Made by a program: the position numbers and the translations under genes. A DNA stretch of 64,000 nt from Oscillospiraceae bacterium (GTDB lineage: Bacteria; Bacillota; Clostridia; Oscillospirales; CAG-272): assembly GCA_015064295.1 (NCBI GenBank), contig SVSM01000002.1, positions 5,872-69,871 on the forward strand. The letters are read 5' to 3'. Positions 1-11,304 of the stretch are shown in pieces. The notes beneath the pieces are model-generated. The model searched no databases and was not told the DNA's origin. It worked only from the letters and a program-made list of their open reading frames with translations. Each line of letters starts with the position of its first letter. The stretch's first letter is position 1.

Positions 1-3000
1 AAAGCGTCTAAAACCAGTAGCAAAAACATACCCAGCCAAACGCTTTCACCGTCTCCTTCCCCAACCCGATTCATGCCGTCGTTCCAGTCTCCTCCCCCCA
101 TCAGGGGCAGGCCGTGGCGGCCAAAGACGAGGGAGACCTCAATGGCGCGGGCGCAGTGGGAGTAGAGGGATTCCCGATAGCGGCCTTTCACCGCCGTTTC
201 GTAGCGGTCGTGCTCCTTGTCGGACAGAGGCGGAGAGCTGAGGTAGGGGAGCTTGATGTCAAGGATCCCGTCGTCACCGGTTGCCGCAAGGTACTCGGCC
301 ACCGCATAGGGCAGCCAGAGGCGGTCGTCGGTGTAGCGGCTCCGCACGCCACGGGAAACGCCGCGAAGGATATGCCACCAGTGCATCACGTCCCCCTCCT
401 CGTATTGATGACAAGCGGCGCGCAGGATGTGGACCTTGGCCGTTTGCGGTGAGAACCGCAGAAGGGCAAGGCAGTCCTGAAGCTGGTCACGGAAGCCGTA
501 GGCGCCTCCCGACTGATAGAAGCCGGTTCGCCCAAGGTAGCGGCAGACCAAGGCCTGGCGGGGCAGGTAATCGTTTACCATGACGGCCAGATGCCGGTCG
601 GGAAGGGTTACCGTCAGGTTAGGGAGGTGAGCGTTAAGATGGCGTTCGTAGGCATCGGCACAGGCCGTAAAGGCCTCTTTGGTCGCATATCGCTTGCGGA
701 TATGGGCAAGAGTCGCCTCTCCTCCTGTGGGATAGGCACCCAGAAGGAAGGCCGTCATGCCGTCAAAGTCCCGCCGCACCAAAAATCCCACGTCATAGCC
801 GTCGTGTGATACGATGCGGGGAAAGAATTTGGTGGTATCCCCCTCGGTGACCGCCTCCACGGGACGGCTGCGGGCGATGCGTTCCCCCATCACGGGGGTA
901 ATTTGATAGGTGAGGTCATCGGAACGGCCTCCCTCAGGTAGCGAAACGGTGATCACCTTGCAGGGGAGGCGAGGGTCTACGGTAGCGGTCACGGAGTAAG
1001 CCTTCCCATTTACCGTACCGTACCATCGAGCCCCACCGTGACCGAAGACCACGCGAGAGGAGGCGGCACACAGGTCGTAGCATCCCCCTTCGGTTTGGTA
1101 TAGCAGCCGCTCACCGTCAAAGTCCAGGAGATTGTCCCCGCGGAAGGGGGTGATCCGCCGTTCGTGGCAGTTTCCGATCCAGGTGTAGCCAAGGGAATTT
1201 TGCGTGACGAGCGTCCCGAAATATCCGGTGGCGTAAACGTAGGAGAGGGGAGATCGCTCAACACCCTTGACAATCTCAAAGCCCCGTTTTCGGAAGACGC
1301 CCCCAAAGACAGCAGGGTCATCTCCCGCATCGGGAGATTGAGGGAGGGCCTCCGGCGCGGTGATGATGGGGGAGACAGCGGGAGAGGGAAGAATGGCCTC
1401 ACGGAGAAGGGCGTCAGGCGTAAAGTCGGCATCCAGCACGGCCGTAAGGCAAGAGACAGCGGTAAGAAGCTCCCGCTCCTCCATACCGTCAAGGGGATAG
1501 ATCCCCCCGGTGTGGTGGAGCAGATAGCCCACGGCGCAGACCTCTGCCGCTTCGGTAATGGCGGCAAGGGAGGGATTCCGATAGTCACCGCAGCTCTTGT
1601 AGAGGATGACCAGATCCAAGCGAATGCCCGAGAGAGCCAAATACTTGTGAGCCGCCATAAAGTCGGTCAGGTGCCGCAGGGCAGGAGAGCCCTCCTTGGG
1701 AGGCTCGGGAAGAATCAGACACACGATAGGAAGGTCTCCCGAGATCCCGTGGCGCCACAGATCCCCGATGGAAAGGGAGCGTCTCAAGACGCAGGGCCTT
1801 GGGGGCTGATGCAGACAGGTCAGCATCAGCTCGGCGAGCTTGGCAAAGGAGGGCCGTCCCCCGCACCCCGCCAGCTTCTCCACCACCGTCCGAGACAGGC
1901 GGGAGGCGGCGTACTTGGCGGCGTTTTGCTTGCGGGAGGCTTTCAGCTCAAGGCGTGCCGCCTTCAGGGCAGTCAGGGCATCCTCCTGCCCCTTACCGAC
2001 GCTGAGGAGCAGATTTCCTACGTAGCGTCCCTTGGCATGGGATTCCTTTTTGATGGCGCAGAAGGGATTGATGAGGGTGCCGCTTTTGCAGGAGAAGCCA
2101 GCGTCAAGGAGGGCTTCCACGTCGCCGTCTTGGTAGAGCAGTCCCAGAACGTCCCGTCTGGTCTCAAAGACCTCGTGACCGCCGTAGCTTTCAAGGGAGA
2201 CGGCAAGACAGAGGTCAGGCCGTTTTCCATCCTTTTGGCGGCGGGTGTAGAGAATGGCTGACTCATCGTTCAGATAGGTGGCCGTTACGTGAAGATCGGC
2301 GTAGGCAGGGTGTGCATCCCGATCCCTTGCGGTGGTAAGAGAGGGCTCAAAGGTCAAAAGAGGGCAAATGGAGCGGAAGTGCCCCTCCACCTCCAAGGTC
2401 ATCACGAAGGAGCGACAGCGTCCCAAGACGGACAGCGACAGTTCAGCCATCAGCTTGGGGGTATCCTTACGCCAGACCAGACGGTTTCCCGTGACGCCGC
2501 GGGAACGGCTTCCCGACAGCATATCGTACCGAACACCGTCGGCGGCAAAGAGGAAACGGGGACGGTGGGCGCGACCGAAGGTAAAGGGATCGACGGCGAC
2601 GTCCACACCCATGGCCGAAAGCTTCAGAAGGTCGTCCTTGGCCACCGCCGCAAGGCCGTTTTCGGCGATCATGGCGGCGTGTGGATGGGAGGGCGGCGCC
2701 TCCGATTCCCGTAGCCATTTGGACACCTGGCCCCTGGTAAGGGGGTGGGCCTGAGGGGCTCGCAGACGGGCGTTTTGAGGGGAGAGCGGCGCGTGAATGG
2801 GAATCTTTTCCTCAAGCAGCTCGGCCGAGGAGGCGGTGTAGGGATCGGCCATAAAATCCCGAACGAAGATACCGTCAAAGCAGGCGTTGGCACAGGAGAG
2901 CAGGCTCATGCCCATGTGATGGGACATATAGGAGCGAATGACGGCGTGTCCGTTGCCCACCCGGGAGGGGGTAAAATCGATGGCCTCGTAGAAGCCGTAG

Positions 3001-6000
3001 GGGCCGTACATGTCCAGTTTTTTCAGCTGCTCCAGGTTGTCCAGGACCTCACCCGGGCAGATCTTCAGACAAAGAAAGGAGGCGTAGGGTGCGATGACGT
3101 TATCCCGATGAAGCCCACGCTTCAAGCCCAAAGAAGGGGTGCCCACCGCCTTGTACTGATAGTTCATGTCGGCGTCGAAGCGGTAATATCCGCACTCGGA
3201 GCGGCCCCAAACGCCGTGTGTGGCGGCGATCCGTTGCTCACGGACGGCAAAGGAGAGGGCCTCGTAGCTTAACGATCCGAATCGGGTGGGGAGGAGCAGG
3301 GCGGGCATGAGATATTCAAACATGGTTCCCGTCCAGGAGGCAAGCCCGAGGTAGCCCTCCCGCCCGATGAGAATGCGGCCCAGGCGGTTCCAATGGTCCC
3401 GAGGCACCTGTCCCGTAGCAATGGCAAAGTAGGAGGTGGTGCGAGCCTCACTCATAAAGAGGTCGTAGCAGCCCTCACCGGGATGGTCCTCCGCCGTGTT
3501 CAGGCCAATGCGGAAAAGCTTTTTTCTCTCATCGTAAAGGAGGGAAAAATCCGCTCCGTCGATGAGGGACCGCACCTGCTTTTGCAGATCGGCAAACCGC
3601 TGAGTACCGTCGTCAAGACGGGAAAGTCCCCGGGAGAGTGTCACAAGACAGGTCACAAAGTTACCGGAATCGACGGTGGAAACGTAGGGCGCCCCCAGAA
3701 TGGACAGGTCCTCGGTGCTGTACCAGTTGTAGAGATGCCCGTTCCATTTTTGCAGACGGTCCACGGTGGTGAGCGTTTTTTTCAGCCGTCCCAGCAGCTC
3801 GTTCTTAGAGAGGAAGCCAAAGGCCTCGGCCGCCATACAAGAAAGGAGGTATAGGCCGATGTTGGTGGGAGAGGTGCGATGGGCGGTCACCTCGGTGGGG
3901 GAGAGCTGAATATTATCGGGTGGAAGGTCGTTGTCCTCTTGGGACACGTGATCGGCAAAGAAGCGCCATTGATCCCTGGCGTAAGCCTGAATGGTCGCCT
4001 TATCCTCTTTTCGGATCTTGGGTGCAGGAGAGAAGGGCTTGCCGATCCGATAGGCAAGAAAGGGAAAGCAAAGCCATAAAAGCCCTAACCCCCGTCCCGG
4101 CAGATCGGGATAAAACACTACGAGCGCCAGACCGAAGAGGAGGGAAGGAAGCATACGGTAGAGATAGAGGGATAAGCCCTTCATACCCTGCTCCGCCTCG
4201 GAGGCCGTCTTCCATTCCAGCATCCTCTTGCGGGAGAAAAGCATCCGATACCCGGCGCGGAGCACGGCGTCGGCGTTCATGACTGCGCTTTGCAAAAGTG
4301 AGGAAAGGGAATAGAGGAGGTTACCGAGGGCGTGCAGCATCCCCGGCAAAACAAAGGAGAAGAACCGCCGTCCGCTGAAGCGGATCAGACGGATCACGGA
4401 AAGGAGGCAGGGGAGCACAAGATAGGCCAAGGCAAGGTGGAGAGACGGCTCGGCTACCGACTCGGGGGCAAAGAGACAGAGAAGGATGGCGAGAGCCGAT
4501 GAAACCGGCACCAGGGCGCGTCTTACGTTATCGTAGATCTTAAATTTGGAGAGCCGCGAGATGGGATTACGGTAGAGAGCCCCCTGACTGTCCTGCACGT
4601 AGCGTCCCGTGAAGGCTAGGGCCTGGACGTCGCCGCGGATCCATCGATGGGATCGGTCAAGACAGGTAAGCGGGCTTCCCGGCAGATCGTCGGTGAGAGG
4701 GAGATCGGTCAGGGCACCGGCCCGCAGGCGGCTTCCCTCCAGAAGGTCGTGGCTGAGGACGGCGCCGTCGGGGAATTGGCCGTCGATGAGGGCAGAGAAG
4801 GCGTCCACGTCAAAGATGCCCTTTCCGCAGAAGATTCCCTCATCAAAGAGGGTCTGATAGGTCTCGTAGGCAGCGGAGGCATAGATGTCGGTGCCGCCGT
4901 TGCCGGCCGACAGGACGGCAAAGGGGGTCCTCTCGGTAGAGGCAAGGGACGCCTCCATGCGGGGCTGCAGAATGGCGTGACCCTTCACCACGATGCCGTT
5001 TTCAAGGATGGGCCGATTGGCGGGGTGGAGCATGGCTCCCACCATATCCCGTACCGCCCCGCGGTAGAGACGGGTGTCGGAGTCCAGGGTGATGACGTAG
5101 CGAATGGTGTCGGGGATGTCCCCGCCGCAGAAGGAGACGATGGTCGTCTCACCGCCCCGTAGGAAGCGAGTCAGCTCAATGACCGCGCCACGCTTGCGCT
5201 CCCATCCCATGTATTTTCCTTCGGTGGGGGCAAAGCGGCGCCGACGGACGAAGAGGTGAAGGGAACAGCCGTAGGCTTGGTTGAGAGCATCCATGGCCTC
5301 CCGTATCTGAGAAATGGCGGTCTCATCCCCTGCCGTTTCGGCCGTATCAGCCTCCTTCAGGTCGCAAAGAAGGCCGAAATGAGCATGGGGATCCCGATTG
5401 GCAAAGTAGCAGTTTTTCAGCTTTTCCACCAGGGCAAGGTCGTCCTTCCGACCCGTTAAGAGGGCGGTAATGACCGTAAGGGTGGCGGCGTGGGGAGGAA
5501 GCGCATCCAGCTTTTTTCGCGGAATGGGGCGGACCCTTACCAAATAGGAGAACAGCAGATCTCCCACCTGCTTGGCGGCCTCCGACAGAGGGAGAAGCAA
5601 AAAGAGCCAAATGGCCGGAAAGCGGCAAAGGGCCAGCGCCCCTGCGGAAAAAAGCAGAAACAGCATGGCCAATATCGGGAAATAGAATCGTGACGCTGGA
5701 CGCTTTTCCTGACCGAGCAGCTCTCCTGCCGAAAGGATGCCTGCCGCTTCTGCCTCGGTAATGGCAAAGCGCTTGGCGTAGGAGCTGACGCGACGACGAC
5801 AGAGATCGCGGGTCACCTCGTCGCAGCCGGCAAAGTGATCGTTTGCCGATAAGATCCGTTCGGCCTCCGACAGACGGAGGAAGAGAAGGTCGATTTCGAT
5901 GAAATGGAGGTTTTTCAGGTACTCCACCGTGTCGCAAAGGGCCTCGTCGGAACGGACGGGGAGCGCCAGCTCCTTAACGGCCCAGACCGTGGCGTAATCG

Positions 6001-6284
6001 TAAAACAACGAAAGCTCACGGTAGGAATAGCTTCCTCCCATGGCCTCAGCGATGGCGTCGACGTCGGTGAGACGCCGGGGAGACACGGCCCGTCCCACGG
6101 CTTCAAAAAAAGTGGGGAAACGGATCCGCCCGCCTATGGCACGACCGGCCTTGTCGGTGTAACCGAGAAGGAGGGAGAAGAGATCGGAATCGGCATAATA
6201 TTTTTCCAGCTTTGCCACGTTTGCTTTGAGATCGAATTTTCGGTAATCGGTCATACTATCGCCCTTGTGAAAAGATTTTTCCAT
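1..6284 (-). CDS. Giant cyclic beta-1,2-glucan synthase-like protein (N-terminal TM region, GT84 glycosyltransferase, C-terminal GH94 phosphorylase-type domain). The 3' end lies outside the window, and more than 2090 codons are visible.
   Basis: Not in the ORF track because there is no stop codon in the window. None of the listed minus-strand ORFs between 1 and 6284 is in the frame whose codon-start coordinates are 2 mod 3, which fits one uninterrupted frame. My translation from ATG 6284 (alternative ATG 6254, preceded by AAGGG) gives MEKSFHKGDSMTDYRKFDL... It then shows GT84-like motifs: ITLDSDT, SHDLLEG, RSHRWIRGD. Near 380-410 it shows GH94-like EEGDVMHWWH, then DDRLWLPY and GGGDWNDGMN. 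Confidence 0.8.
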   Translation of the reverse strand, partial: MEKSFHKGDSMTDYRKFDLKANVAKLEKYYADSDLFSLLLGYTDKAGRAIGGRIRFPTFFEAVGRAVSPRRLTDVDAIAEAMGGSYSYRELSLFYDYATVWAVKELALPVRSDEALCDTVEYLKNLHFIEIDLLFLRLSEAERILSANDHFAGCDEVTRDLCRRRVSSYAKRFAITEAEAAGILSAGELLGQEKRPASRFYFPILAMLFLLFSAGALALCRFPAIWLFLLLPLSEAAKQVGDLLFSYLVRVRPIPRKKLDALPPHAATLTVITALLTGRKDDLALVEKLKNCYFANRDPHAHFGLLCDLKEADTAETAGDETAISQIREAMDALNQAYGCSLHLFVRRRRFAPTEGKYMGWERKRGAVIELTRFLRGGETTIVSFCGGDIPDTIRYVITLDSDTRLYRGAVRDMVGAMLHPANRPILENGIVVKGHAILQPRMEASLASTERTPFAVLSAGNGGTDIYASAAYETYQTLFDEGIFCGKGIFDVDAFSALIDGQFPDGAVLSHDLLEGSRLRAGALTDLPLTDDLPGSPLTCLDRSHRWIRGDVQALAFTGRYVQDSQGALYRNPISRLSKFKIYDNVRRALVPVSSALAILLCLFAPESVAEPSLHLALAYLVLPCLLSVIRLIRFSGRRFFSFVLPGMLHALGNLLYSLSSLLQSAVMNADAVLRAGYRMLFSRKRMLEWKTASEAEQGMKGLSLYLYRMLPSLLFGLALVVFYPDLPGRGLGLLWLCFPFLAYRIGKPFSPAPKIRKEDKATIQAYARDQWRFFADHVSQEDNDLPPDNIQLSPTEVTAHRTSPTNIGLYLLSCMAAEAFGFLSKNELLGRLKKTLTTVDRLQKWNGHLYNWYSTEDLSILGAPYVSTVDSGNFVTCLVTLSRGLSRLDDGTQRFADLQKQVRSLIDGADFSLLYDERKKLFRIGLNTAEDHPGEGCYDLFMSEARTTSYFAIATGQVPRDHWNRLGRILIGREGYLGLASWTGTMFEYLMPALLLPTRFGSLSYEALSFAVREQRIAATHGVWGRSECGYYRFDADMNYQYKAVGTPSLGLKRGLHRDNVIAPYASFLCLKICPGEVLDNLEQLKKLDMYGPYGFYEAIDFTPSRVGNGHAVIRSYMSHHMGMSLLSCANACFDGIFVRDFMADPYTASSAELLEEKIPIHAPLSPQNARLRAPQAHPLTRGQVSKWLRESEAPPSHPHAAMIAENGLAAVAKDDLLKLSAMGVDVAVDPFTFGRAHRPRFLFAADGVRYDMLSGSRSRGVTGNRLVWRKDTPKLMAELSLSVLGRCRSFVMTLEVEGHFRSICPLLTFEPSLTTARDRDAHPAYADLHVTATYLNDESAILYTRRQKDGKRPDLCLAVSLESYGGHEVFETRRDVLGLLYQDGDVEALLDAGFSCKSGTLINPFCAIKKESHAKGRYVGNLLLSVGKGQEDALTALKAARLELKASRKQNAAKYAASRLSRTVVEKLAGCGGRPSFAKLAELMLTCLHQPPRPCVLRRSLSIGDLWRHGISGDLPIVCLILPEPPKEGSPALRHLTDFMAAHKYLALSGIRLDLVILYKSCGDYRNPSLAAITEAAEVCAVGYLLHHTGGIYPLDGMEERELLTAVSCLTAVLDADFTPDALLREAILPSPAVSPIITAPEALPQSPDAGDDPAVFGGVFRKRGFEIVKGVERSPLSYVYATGYFGTLVTQNSLGYTWIGNCHERRITPFRGDNLLDFDGERLLYQTEGGCYDLCAASSRVVFGHGGARWYGTVNGKAYSVTATVDPRLPCKVITVSLPEGGRSDDLTYQITPVMGERIARSRPVEAVTEGDTTKFFPRIVSHDGYDVGFLVRRDFDGMTAFLLGAYPTGGEATLAHIRKRYATKEAFTACADAYERHLNAHLPNLTVTLPDRHLAVMVNDYLPRQALVCRYLGRTGFYQSGGAYGFRDQLQDCLALLRFSPQTAKVHILRAACHQYEEGDVMHWWHILRGVSRGVRSRYTDDRLWLPYAVAEYLAATGDDGILDIKLPYLSSPPLSDKEHDRYETAVKGRYRESLYSHCARAIEVSLVFGRHGLPLMGGGDWNDGMNRVGEGDGESVWLGMFLLLVLDA

Positions 6285-9421: not shown

Positions 9422-9440
9422 GCGGCTTAGTTTAAGAATA

Positions 9441-9489
9441 AAAGGCAATATCACCCCGACACCAAAATGGGGAATATTGCCTTTTTTTA
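9441..9489. terminator. Hairpin terminator between the convergent spoIVB and RT genes
   Basis: AAAGGCAATAT ... ATATTGCCTTT stem with an inner CCCC/GGGG pairing, followed by TTTTTTT on the plus strand. Confidence 0.6.
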
Positions 9490-9494
9490 TTGCA

Positions 9495-10418
9495 TTATTG
9501 ATTATCTTTTAAAATATTTAAGATTTGAACCTTATAATTTAAAAATTCTTTGTTGTCAGGGGTTATCTGTAACACGTAATTGATCTGCCCAAGCAACCGT
9601 GAGAGATAGTTATATGGATTTTCCGGACTCCCCATGTGCGTCAAATGCTCTTGTACACCGAATTTTTTGCAGTAAAAAACTTCTTGACGAATCTGTCTTC
9701 GATAGCTTTTTTCCGTGTTTATTTTTTCATTAACCACGATCCCCGTGACCGTCTTTTTATTTCCTCCGGTGAAGCAACGTGTCTTTCTTCTGTTTAGTAT
9801 AAACCCTAATGATTTTAACTCGCCTTCAACGAATTTTATGACATTGGATTCGTCGAAGCTTCCGGAAAACGACATATCATCACAATAACGGGTATAACGG
9901 ATTTTACGTTCCTCACACCATTCACCGACCGTTTGGTCAAAATCACGCATAATGATATTGGATATTACGGGGGATGTGGGTGCGCCTTGCGGGAGAGATT
10001 CACCCTTGTAGCAAAGTAAGGAAAGCAGCACCCGAATTTGTTCGGAATATTTTTTTGCAGGGAAAACCTTTTCTTTCACAAGAGAATACTTTATACTGTC
10101 AAAAAAATTGTAAATGTCAAGCTTTAAAAGCTTTTCTTTTCCAACGTGACAAATTGCGTTTTTTCTTATACTGCTTGCCGGTTTATATGCTTTGGCATAA
10201 ATGGAAACCGGCTCGTATGCGAGAAGCTTTTCCGAAATGGCACGCTGTATTTTTTTTAACGGTTCGTCCGGGATAGAAAGCACTCGTATGCTTCCGTCGG
10301 ATTTTGGAATGCTTTTATTGTGATAATGGGCGTTTATATTGTTGCTTGTGGCATAAAGTGTTTTTGCTGTAACGCCTAAATCGGTTTCTAATGACTGCAA
10401 TTCCTTGTATACGATCAT
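9495..10418 (-). CDS. Retron-type reverse transcriptase (RNA-directed DNA polymerase), 307 aa
   Basis: Motifs line up closely with classical retron RTs such as Ec86: IPKSDGSIRVLSIP, LDIYNFFDSI, LPQGAPTSPVISNI, YTRYCDDMSFS (YxDD box) and the retron-typical KTVTGIVVN. There is no maturase, endonuclease or fused effector domain. A GGAG Shine-Dalgarno lies 7 nt upstream of ATG 10418. Confidence 0.9.
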   Translation of the reverse strand: MIVYKELQSLETDLGVTAKTLYATSNNINAHYHNKSIPKSDGSIRVLSIPDEPLKKIQRAISEKLLAYEPVSIYAKAYKPASSIRKNAICHVGKEKLLKLDIYNFFDSIKYSLVKEKVFPAKKYSEQIRVLLSLLCYKGESLPQGAPTSPVISNIIMRDFDQTVGEWCEERKIRYTRYCDDMSFSGSFDESNVIKFVEGELKSLGFILNRRKTRCFTGGNKKTVTGIVVNEKINTEKSYRRQIRQEVFYCKKFGVQEHLTHMGSPENPYNYLSRLLGQINYVLQITPDNKEFLNYKVQILNILKDNQ

Positions 10419-10627
10419 AGGTTATCTCCTCAAACAATACAAATTGTATAATGAAAGGCGCAGGAGTAAGGATATGCGACGAAAGTCGCATATAGCGCAC
10501 TTGTGCGCGAATTACTTCAAGCTCTTTCATTTGAGCCTGCGAATACGAAAAGATTAACTGCCGAGAACGACTCGCTCACGGTTCGATAATAAATCGAATA
10601 ACACTATTGTTTTTTTGGAGTATTGTA
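10419..10627 (-). ncRNA. Candidate retron msr/msd non-coding RNA (ends approximate)
   Basis: Lies immediately upstream of the RT on the same strand and downstream of a TTGACA-17-TAGTAT promoter. Terminal complementarity: CTCC...AAACAATA (10620-10605) with TATTGTTT..GGAG (10439-10426). Hairpins at 10582-10598, 10561-10581, 10495-10508 and 10472-10493. An enclosing stem ATGAAAG/CTTTCAT spans 10451-10530. Confidence 0.55.
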
Positions 10628-10633
10628 ATGTAT

Positions 10634-10662
10634 ATACTACACCTTAATTAAAGTTTTGTCAA
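10634..10662 (-). promoter_or_regulatory. Sigma-A type promoter driving the ncRNA-RT transcript
   Basis: On the minus strand: TTGACA (10662-10657), a 17-nt spacer, then TAGTAT (10639-10634). Confidence 0.55.
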
Positions 10663-10803
10663 GTGGCAATGATTCCTCATGCTTTATTTTCCGGAAACGG
10701 CAACACCGACAATCCCGAGGAGAAGCTCATGCATTTACGGGAACAGGGCTTGCATGACTAAAACCGTCGCCTTTGCCTGATAAACATTCCCTCTGATCGC
10801 ATG

Positions 10804-10843
10804 AAAAACAAAACGAACCGGTTCTTTTGAACCGGTTCTTTTC
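10804..10843. terminator. Bidirectional hairpin terminator downstream of abrB
   Basis: GAACCGGTTC TTTT GAACCGGTTC, flanked by an A-run and a T-run. On the minus strand GTTTTGTTTTT follows the stem. Confidence 0.7.
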
Positions 10844-10868
10844 ATATAGTAGCCTTACGGCAGTATCC

Positions 10869-11114
10869 TTACAGTGAAGCGATCTTGGCAATACAGCTAC
10901 GGCAGAGCAGCTTGCCGCCGAAATGCGTGACGTTATCGGCGTCCCCGCAGAAAATACAGGCGGGCTGATATTTTTTCAGAATGATACGGTCGTCGTCGAT
11001 AAAAATTTCGACGGCATCGCCCTTATTGTCGATCTCCATGCTTTTTCGGATTTCAATGGGAAGCACGATGCGTCCCAGCTCGTCCACTTTTCTGACAATT
11101 CCCGTCGATTTCAT
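10869..11114 (-). CDS. abrB: AbrB/SpoVT-family transition-state regulator with a C-terminal 4-Cys motif
   Basis: MKSTGIVRKVDELGRIVLPIEIRKSM...IILKKYQP is a canonical AbrB swapped-hairpin N-domain. The C-terminus carries CIFCG...CRSC. Confidence 0.88.
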   Translation of the reverse strand: MKSTGIVRKVDELGRIVLPIEIRKSMEIDNKGDAVEIFIDDDRIILKKYQPACIFCGDADNVTHFGGKLLCRSCIAKIASL

Positions 11115-11186
11115 TGTAGGTTCTCCATTTCTTAGGGACGTTTTGGTGCGAGAGGGGCTCCCGACGCCAAAGGGGGTATGACTTGT

Positions 11187-11193
11187 TTCGACA
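11187..11193 (-). promoter_or_regulatory. Possible Spo0A box upstream of abrB
   Basis: Plus-strand TTCGACA equals minus-strand TGTCGAA and matches the 0A-box TGNCGAA. It lies about 75 nt upstream of the abrB start. A one-mismatch copy (TACGACA) is at 11269-11275. Confidence 0.3.
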
Positions 11194-11304
11194 ACATATT
11201 ACCATAAATTGTAAGTTCTGTCAACAGTTCTCAAAGGCAAAATCGGATTTTTTACAAATTGTTCACGTTACGACAAACCGAAATCAGAGGAAAGGGAGCG
11301 AGAT

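Follow-up and report, generated by a model that had tools for sequence, protein, structure and literature searches.

A gene labelled just 'RNA-directed DNA polymerase' lies on the minus strand of the 64-kb stretch of DNA analyzed here (the window), and the sequence directly 5' of it is rich in palindromes. Do the gene and the palindromes together form a retron, and if so, is it complete and of which kind? Retrons are small bacterial elements in which a reverse transcriptase (RT) uses a stretch of the element's own folded RNA as the template for numerous copies of single-stranded DNA; most retron types are tripartite, with an effector or accessory protein besides the noncoding RNA (ncRNA) and the RT. 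The sequence gives us strong grounds for regarding the minus-strand element of ~1.2 kb (10670 to 9437) as very probably a complete and self-contained Ec107-like (RT clade 2) retron. This reading annotates an ncRNA gene that had been unannotated and gives the generically labelled gene its place in an element. On the minus strand the cassette has the order promoter, msr-msd RNA of ~200 nt (about 10627-10426), RT gene (10418-9495), and hairpin (9491-9437). Its features, and the gene 5' of it, are as follows.

11114-10869, minus strand: gene for an 81-amino acid protein of the AbrB/SpoVT/MazE fold, 5' of the retron
10662-10634, minus strand: sigma-70/sigma-A type promoter, TTGACA-17-TAGTAT, by direct reading and a scan
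10617-10620, minus strand: outer 5' helix segment CUCC, with GGAG at 10429-10426 as its partner in the minimum free energy (MFE) and centroid folds
10605-10612, minus strand: 5' arm of the terminal inverted repeat, DNA AAACAATA, RNA AAACAAUA, by fold, relatives, and covariation
10604, minus strand: predicted branching (priming) guanosine, directly 3' of the 5' arm, in an invariant A-G
10582-10598, minus strand: msr hairpin 1, TTCGAT/ATCGAA (RNA UUCGAU/AUCGAA), by fold and covariation
10561-10581, minus strand: msr hairpin 2, CCGTGAGCG-AGT-CGTTCTCGG, with apex GCGAGUCGC, by fold and covariation
10539-10547, minus strand: conserved single-stranded motif CGUAUUCGC, conserved in alignments A3, A4, and A7
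10440-10556, minus strand: predicted msd template region, mapped from Ec107 via alignment A7, its upper boundary being approximate and predicted
10450-10531, minus strand: msd stem system M1-M4, by fold and alignments
10530-10524 with 10457-10451, minus strand: core ATGAAAG/CTTTCAT of msd helix M1 (AAUGAAAG/CUUUCAUU), by fold
10516-10512 with 10469-10465, minus strand: msd helix M2, AGTAA/TTACT (AGUAA/UUACU), by fold
10508-10495, minus strand: msd hairpin M3, GCGCA/TGCGC (GCGCA/UGCGC), by fold
10493-10472, minus strand: msd hairpin M4, 9 bp, DNA ATATGCGAC/GTCGCATAT, RNA AUAUGCGAC-UUUC-GUCGCAUAU, by fold
10432-10439, minus strand: 3' arm of the terminal inverted repeat, DNA TATTGTTT, RNA UAUUGUUU, by fold, RNAalifold, and covariation
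10426-10429, minus strand: GGAG, the 3' segment of the outer helix and also the RT Shine-Dalgarno sequence, 7 nt before the ATG at 10418
9495-10418, minus strand: Ec107-like retron RT, 307 amino acids, by RVT_1 domain, retron RT profiles, and motifs
9437-9491, minus strand: hairpin resembling a terminator, located where the RT and spoIVB genes converge

The promoter, which the first-pass annotation had read by eye, was recovered by the promoter scan with 10 of 12 consensus matches (-35 box TTGACA, 10662-10657; -10 box TAGTAT, 10639-10634), and transcription is expected to start at ~10627. A -35/-10 pair occupies the equivalent position in the relatives L001, L002, L085, L088, L015, L007, and L033. 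Nucleotide homology among related cassettes starts at 10664-10674, just 5' of the -35 box; its other limit, in L088, is precisely the RT stop codon (9495). The abrB-like gene has its own promoter, TTGACA-17-TAATAT (TG-extended), within the region 10869-11224 (minus strand), and a terminator of its own, a perfect 10-bp palindrome at 10815-10838 (minus strand). The retron is therefore an independent unit, having its own promoter, a neighbor with a separate promoter and terminator, and homology limits that run from 10664-10674 to the RT stop codon. The abrB/MazE-like gene was considered as a possible part of the retron and rejected, as it has its own promoter and terminator and is absent from the other loci. 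A 54-amino acid ORF at 10727-10891 overlaps the abrB-like terminator and is probably spurious and not a gene.

At the other end, the hairpin at 9437-9491 looks like a bidirectional terminator serving the convergent RT (minus strand) and spoIVB (plus strand) genes. It is long and A/U-flanked (AAAAAAGGCAAUA...UAUUGCCUUUU), is absent among the terminator-like sites given by a terminator scan, and gave a weak Rfam match to a simple stem (27.7 bits vs a gathering score of 56.8). At E <= 1, the Rfam scan returned no retron or other ncRNA family, its sole match being a terminator-like stem. The convergent arrangement with spoIVB is kept in four lineages (the window, L001, L085, and L090), although their RT identity is only 65-85%. 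The rest of the 64-kb window has housekeeping functions, as judged from Pfam families (best 25 of 62). Ec107 has reportedly taken the place of a 34-bp intergenic palindrome (PMC6868368); by analogy, insertion at intergenic palindromes could be a habit common to Ec107 and the window retron.

The RT matched the PADLOC model RT_Ec107-like best, over its full length (E 3.7e-126, 418.6 bits), followed by RT_III-A (E 1.5e-102, 341.2 bits) and then by other retron RT types, with the retron RT models of PADLOC ranging from E 1e-50 to 1e-126. It has the motifs NAICH (87-91; region X, NAxxH), YCDD (178-181; catalytic), and VTG (224-226; region Y), and all three, in the form NAxxH, YCDD, and VTG, are present without exception in 33 aligned homologues. 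YCDD, standing in place of YADD, has been described by Simon et al. as the variant catalytic box of RT-Eco5/Ec107 (PMC6868368). Every top match in a PDB sequence search with the window RT was a retron RT, none of them from the Ec107 or III-A group. The Ec107 RT itself is 43% identical to the window RT (E 7e-80) and scores 233 bits against it, and 210-320 bits against RTs without a linked phosphoribosyltransferase (PRTase)-like gene, as compared with 156-217 bits against PRTase-linked RTs (<=202 for all but one). By these profile and pairwise scores, the window RT appears nearer to Ec107-type than to type III-A RTs.

The upstream RNA is predicted to be strongly structured. The first-pass annotation had proposed that 10419-10640 (minus strand) be folded; its MFE structure has an energy of -60.3 kcal/mol, as compared with a mean of -43.3 +/- 4.1 kcal/mol for shuffled sequences (z = -4.16), with 1 of 200 shuffles equally stable. 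The pairing between 10620-10605 and 10439-10426 that had been drawn from the letters is present in this fold, as are the two msr hairpins (10582-10598 and 10561-10581) and, at the places given for them, the enclosing msd stem, its AGTAA/TTACT extension, and the inner hairpins. The 9-bp hairpin at 10472-10493 is likewise where it had been put, but the GAAA loop ascribed to it is a plus-strand reading, the loop on the RNA strand being UUUC. The labels a1 and a2 had been assigned in reverse: in conventional usage a2 denotes the 5' arm and a1 the 3' arm. The terminal stem of the window retron is short, consisting of 8 bp and 4 bp across an internal loop, and in a gapless 12-nt stem search short-stem loci including the window did no better than shuffled sequence. 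Support for this stem comes from homology and covariation, not from its own length.

The relatives gathered were 4 genome loci, 80 metagenome loci, and 6 loci found through exact-protein look-up. The 250 nt 5' of the RT gene are conserved among close relatives, with compensatory changes visible; primary-sequence similarity wanes once RT identity drops to 50-57%, but the RNA architecture is plainly retained. A covariance model of the msr half only (R1) was searched over 603 kb, comprising the window and the loci. It matched the 64-kb window once, at 10527-10625 (minus strand; 93.6 bits), and had matches at E < 1e-3 in 22 loci. All full-length R1 matches are on the RT strand, ~200-560 nt 5' of the RT match.

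Covariation was evaluated in a full-length MAFFT alignment of 27 loci including Ec107 (A7), with the terminal stem, hairpin 2, and msd helices M1 and M2 as the test set. In the tested helices 87.5% of cells are paired, as compared with 35-54% after a shift of the 3' partners by 1-3 columns, and cells with double changes number 180 vs 57 +/- 6 in shuffles (0 of 500 shuffles as high). Eleven of the 12 terminal-stem pairs covary across the 27 loci, with 86.4% of cells paired, a percentage that is somewhat inflated because the 3'-arm coordinates in A7 were set partly by complementarity, along with homology to an invariant G-U. Compensatory versions of this stem include AAACAAUA/UAUUGUUU, GGAACGUAA/UUACGUUCC, GAGGCA/UGCCUC, and AAACCCCUUACAGUA/UACUGUAAGGGGUUU. 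Hairpin 1 covaries at 6 of 6 pairs (77.7% of cells paired; covariance-model alignment A5) and hairpin 2 at 6 of 9 (95.5-95.8% paired; A7 and A5). Among the msd helices, M1 is 73.6% paired (A7), M2 is 93% paired and covarying (A7), and M3 is 88.4% paired and covaries at 5 of its 6 pairs. M4 is found in only about half of the loci; in L002 it carries the compensatory change GCGAC/GUCGC to GCGGC/GCCGC. RNAalifold recovered the terminal stem and hairpin 2 de novo from an alignment that predates A7 and has wider flanks. A strict search for the helix, with the base before the G as its anchor, fails in L003, L005, L006, L010, L017, and L018, which have two mismatches beside the G. The first-pass annotation had named covariation in the upstream regions of homologous RTs as the telling check, and the terminal stem, both msr hairpins, and three msd helices do covary. 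Its alternative register for the 5' arm, with ACAATAC (10626-10620), fared less well, being kept in the closest relatives only, and covariation favors the register that ends at G10604.

Several positions of this RNA are conserved. Where the 5' arm ends on its inner side stands an A-G, whose G is the residue at 10604 that had been pointed out as directly following that arm; this A-G is invariant in 27 of 27 loci including Ec107, and its position and conservation suggest that G10604 primes msDNA synthesis. The GCGAGUCGC apex of hairpin 2 is family-wide and invariant, occurring in Ec107 as well, and hairpin 2 is likely to be an RT recognition element. By analogy to Ec107, the single-stranded motif CGUAUUCGC may mark the approximate stop site of msDNA synthesis. 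The G-U at 10440-10439, where the 3' arm starts, is invariant in A7, and G10440 would be the first templated base, again by analogy to Ec107. The outermost parts are less widely shared: the segment CUCC is kept in the closest relatives, with other outer extensions in more distant loci, and the overlap between helix and Shine-Dalgarno sequence is specific to the closest relatives.

Comparison with Ec107 bears on the kind of retron. Ec107 (Retron-Eco5), a retron of Escherichia coli reportedly going back to Herzer 1992, is the founding member of the 'Ec107-like' stand-alone cassettes of RT clade 2, and its msDNA has 107 nt by the naming convention for retrons. We located Ec107 through two msd pieces taken from supplement primers (PMC8563936) and found it in 366 E. 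coli genomes; the copy between pyrE and slmA (L091) was used as the reference. R1 recognized the Ec107 ncRNA with 22.1 bits (E 0.0011). The 5' part of this RNA reads GCCAGCAGUGGCAAUA|G, followed by a hairpin CCGGC...GCCGG and a hairpin GGUCGGCGAGUCGCUGACU, and its 3' part is the msd, ending G|UAUUGCCGCUGUUGGC. Both elements are cassettes of ~1.2-1.3 kb that consist of msr-msd and RT only, without an accessory gene, between housekeeping genes (pyrE/slmA for Ec107 vs abrB-like/spoIVB for the window), and besides being 43% identical, their RTs have the same unusual YCDD box. The two ncRNAs have in common CAAUA|G at the branch site, a pair of msr hairpins, the GCGAGUCGC apex, an msd stem that branches, and a G-U opening the 3' arm. 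They differ in the terminal stem, which has 16 bp in Ec107 vs 8 + 4 bp in the window retron, and in the msd, the sequences of which are unrelated outside the framework helices. The hosts differ as well, E. coli in one case and a Clostridia-class gut bacterium in the other (the RT cluster is named Ruminococcaceae bacterium). msDNA has been demonstrated for Ec107 and is predicted for the window element, whose upstream RNA is homologous to the Ec107 msr-msd and of the Ec107 structural type. The layout of arm, msr hairpins, msd stem, arm, and RT that had been taken for that of a retron is the plan of Ec107, and it precedes an RT whose best model is that of the Ec107-like group.

Unlike in Ec107, the 3' arm of the window retron overlaps the RT Shine-Dalgarno sequence. 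This overlap had been noticed in the first-pass annotation and holds, since GGAG (10429-10426) is both Shine-Dalgarno sequence and outer helix, so that folding could occlude the ribosome-binding site. The structured RNA might then be a cis-regulatory 5' leader of the RT mRNA, in which CUCC/GGAG pairing throttles translation, and not a template for msDNA. We think this very unlikely, because in L015, L033, L007, L006, and L090 the Shine-Dalgarno sequence is well 3' of the 3' arm and the RNA architecture is nevertheless kept, and because the RNA is homologous to the msr-msd of Ec107, a studied msDNA producer. Occlusion of the Shine-Dalgarno sequence could be a layer added to a retron instead of an alternative to one, and its location within the 3' outer helix could tie RT translation to RNA folding in this subclade.

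One of these loci, L090, shows a peculiarity in the same region. A segment ACGGAGAUUA that follows its 3' arm is duplicated (5090-5165), with the copies ~55 nt apart, and the RT start codon follows the second ACGGAGAUUA copy, although the deposited 360-amino acid gene call begins inside the ncRNA. The deposited RT start is likely mis-annotated, and it is likely that this small duplication separates the Shine-Dalgarno sequence from the retron stem.

We searched the surroundings of the window retron for an effector. PADLOC detected no defense or effector model in the ORFs neighboring the RT, and among the matches listed for the 59 window ORFs there were, besides the RT, only SspA and DndA. Pfam identified one class-V aminotransferase (Aminotran_5) among the same 59 ORFs, and the SspA and DndA matches probably fall on this protein, a housekeeping cysteine desulfurase. 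At the 22 Ec107-like loci, no Pfam family recurs among the 121 neighboring ORFs (maximum 4). Matches to the phage-integrase family account for 4 of these 121 ORFs, and because of such neighbors some Ec107-like copies may sit on integrative elements; the window copy is in a housekeeping region.

Three lineages have an antitoxin-toxin pair directly 5' of the ncRNA (L001, 4067-4725; L085, 4111-4727; L090, 3809-4344), consisting of a small antitoxin gene (Phd/YefM-type in L085) and a gene for a 125-amino acid Fic/Doc toxin. The same three lineages also keep spoIVB 3' of the retron, and L090 has an extra gene for an SRA-domain protein between Doc and the retron. As a candidate effector, Phd/Doc (Fic) was rejected, since tblastn found nothing in the window and the other loci lack it too; the pair probably reflects local synteny at a hotspot for defense or toxin-antitoxin genes rather than a retron partnership.

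A partner gene does occur farther away in the RT family. Clustering of ORFs from all loci revealed a PRTase-like protein of ~290 amino acids 5' of the RT in 20 loci, 11 of which have a protein of ~105 amino acids between the PRTase-like gene and the RT. All 20 have distant RTs (~31-42% identity to Ec107). The same organization is found in type III-A retrons, a sister RT lineage in which the RT is accompanied by a PRTase-like effector and a winged-helix protein (Mestre 2020). Some type III-A loci resemble the Ec107-like ones in their RNA; L039, for example, gives a weak R1 match with the GCGAGUCGC hairpin. Matches of this sort (18-21 bits, with the same hairpin) occur in L039, L053, L056, and other PRTase-linked or distant loci, and L039, L053, L056, and similar loci also have terminal stems of 12-16 bp ending A|G, which suggests that some ncRNAs of distant loci, including that of the PRTase-linked (type III-A) L039, share a design with the Ec107-like RNAs. 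The PRTase-like gene and its small partner set the two groups apart: the arrangement was found in 0 of 22 Ec107-like loci, and the pair is absent from the 64-kb window. The sole phosphoribosyltransferase among the best 25 of 62 Pfam families in the window is a nicotinate PRTase, which we take to be a housekeeping enzyme.

The absence of the pair could mean that the window retron is in decay, a nonfunctional remnant of a type III-A retron whose PRTase effector was lost. Sister RTs (33-43% identity) do have the PRTase-like gene upstream, in the 20 loci described, and Mestre et al. have suggested that an associated protein was lost in the Ec107 branch (PMC7736814). Decay, however, is hard to reconcile with the state of the element. 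The RT ORF is unbroken, and none of the catalytic or retron-specific motifs is missing; identity to L085 and L001 is higher for protein (83-85%) than for nucleotides (79-80%); the RNA helices are upheld by compensatory changes across the 27 loci; and the effector-less form is abundant, with 192 candidates in the SPIRE survey (10.64898/2026.05.14.725207). These observations therefore argue for selection on the two-part cassette, and we give the relic little credence.

An effector-less Ec107-like retron has good company. Stand-alone (msr-msd)-RT cassettes were described in the Ec107 branch, RT clade 2, by Mestre et al. 2020, who considered both trans effectors and another function possible for this branch (PMC7736814). 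In the SPIRE survey, clade2_Ec107like is the second most abundant retron group, lacks a recurrent accessory module, and is assigned to Bacillota in 178 of its 192 candidates, 91% of the group being host-associated; Ec107_like is named first among the msr/msd covariance models most often detected (10.64898/2026.05.14.725207). The window retron is like this group in lineage, Bacillota host, gut source, lack of an accessory module, and ncRNA of Ec107_like type, and it looks like an ordinary member of an already described effector-less, mostly Bacillota lineage.

Other kinds of RT-containing element, namely a group II intron fragment, a diversity-generating retroelement, or a DRT-type defense RT with an ncRNA, are highly improbable. 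Pfam, it is true, detects just the generic RVT_1 domain in the RT, and NCBIfam gives weak matches to Drt2, Drt3a, and group II RT models. Those matches are far under their cutoffs (67 vs 390, 66 vs 300), whereas retron models (PADLOC and NCBIfam) score 180-420 bits; the NCBIfam retron models are far above the Drt and group II models, yet below their own strict cutoffs, with retron_St85_RT reaching 218.8, under its cutoff of 235. In addition, the Rfam scan gave no sign of RNA from a group II intron, no pair of template and variable repeats was detected within 7 kb, and a protein of 307 amino acids has no room for a maturase or endonuclease domain. That the palindromes arose by chance in AT-rich intergenic DNA, as the short terminal stem and its showing in the gapless search might suggest, is scarcely credible given the z of the fold, covariance-model matches only 5' of RTs and on the RT strand, and covariation above that of every shuffle and every slid register.

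For the Ec107-like retron that we favor, a mechanism may be proposed from homology to Ec107 and general retron biochemistry. A single transcript would start near 10627, and its ends would pair, AAACAAUA with UAUUGUUU and CUCC with GGAG, the terminal stem bringing G10604 close to the msd template at its 3' end. The RT would bind the msr hairpins, probably through the invariant GCGAGUCGC apex of hairpin 2, and prime DNA synthesis at the 2'-OH of G10604. The msd would be copied from G10440 toward the msr, with a stop near CGUAUUCGC, at ~10545-10556, and host RNase H would remove the template. The predicted product is a branched RNA-DNA molecule, with the msDNA, the complement of the msd, being ~105-117 nt long and folded into a branched stem as expected by analogy to Ec107.

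In the cell this product may serve in phage defense via a factor encoded elsewhere, or in some altogether different role. It is possible, though we hold it only tentatively, that the Ec107-like retrons of Bacillota are long-resident effector-less elements of the chromosome that make msDNA without a toxin in cis and act through a trans effector or in a nondefense role tied to stationary phase or sporulation. The lack of an accessory gene in 22 loci, the conserved position convergent with spoIVB, and the starvation-induced expression reported for Ec107 (PMC6868368) are all consistent with this reading.

The window retron leaves the current picture of retron biology unchanged. Its value is practical: with coordinates given for the promoter, the priming G, the msd, and the terminator, all as predicted here, the element is directly clonable, and compact two-part retrons are a useful chassis for in vivo production of single-stranded DNA and for genome editing. 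Coming from gut Clostridia, with a clean housekeeping context and a covarying RNA model, it is also a reasonable test case for the function of effector-less retrons.

Elsewhere in the window, a minus-strand ORF of at least 2094 amino acids (3-6284) runs off the start of the sequence. Its product, in which GH94 catalytic, GH94 supersandwich, and glucoamylase-like domains are recognized, presumably resembles a giant enzyme of the cyclic beta-1,2-glucan synthase or phosphorylase type. The many plus-strand ORFs within 3-6284 are probably spurious.
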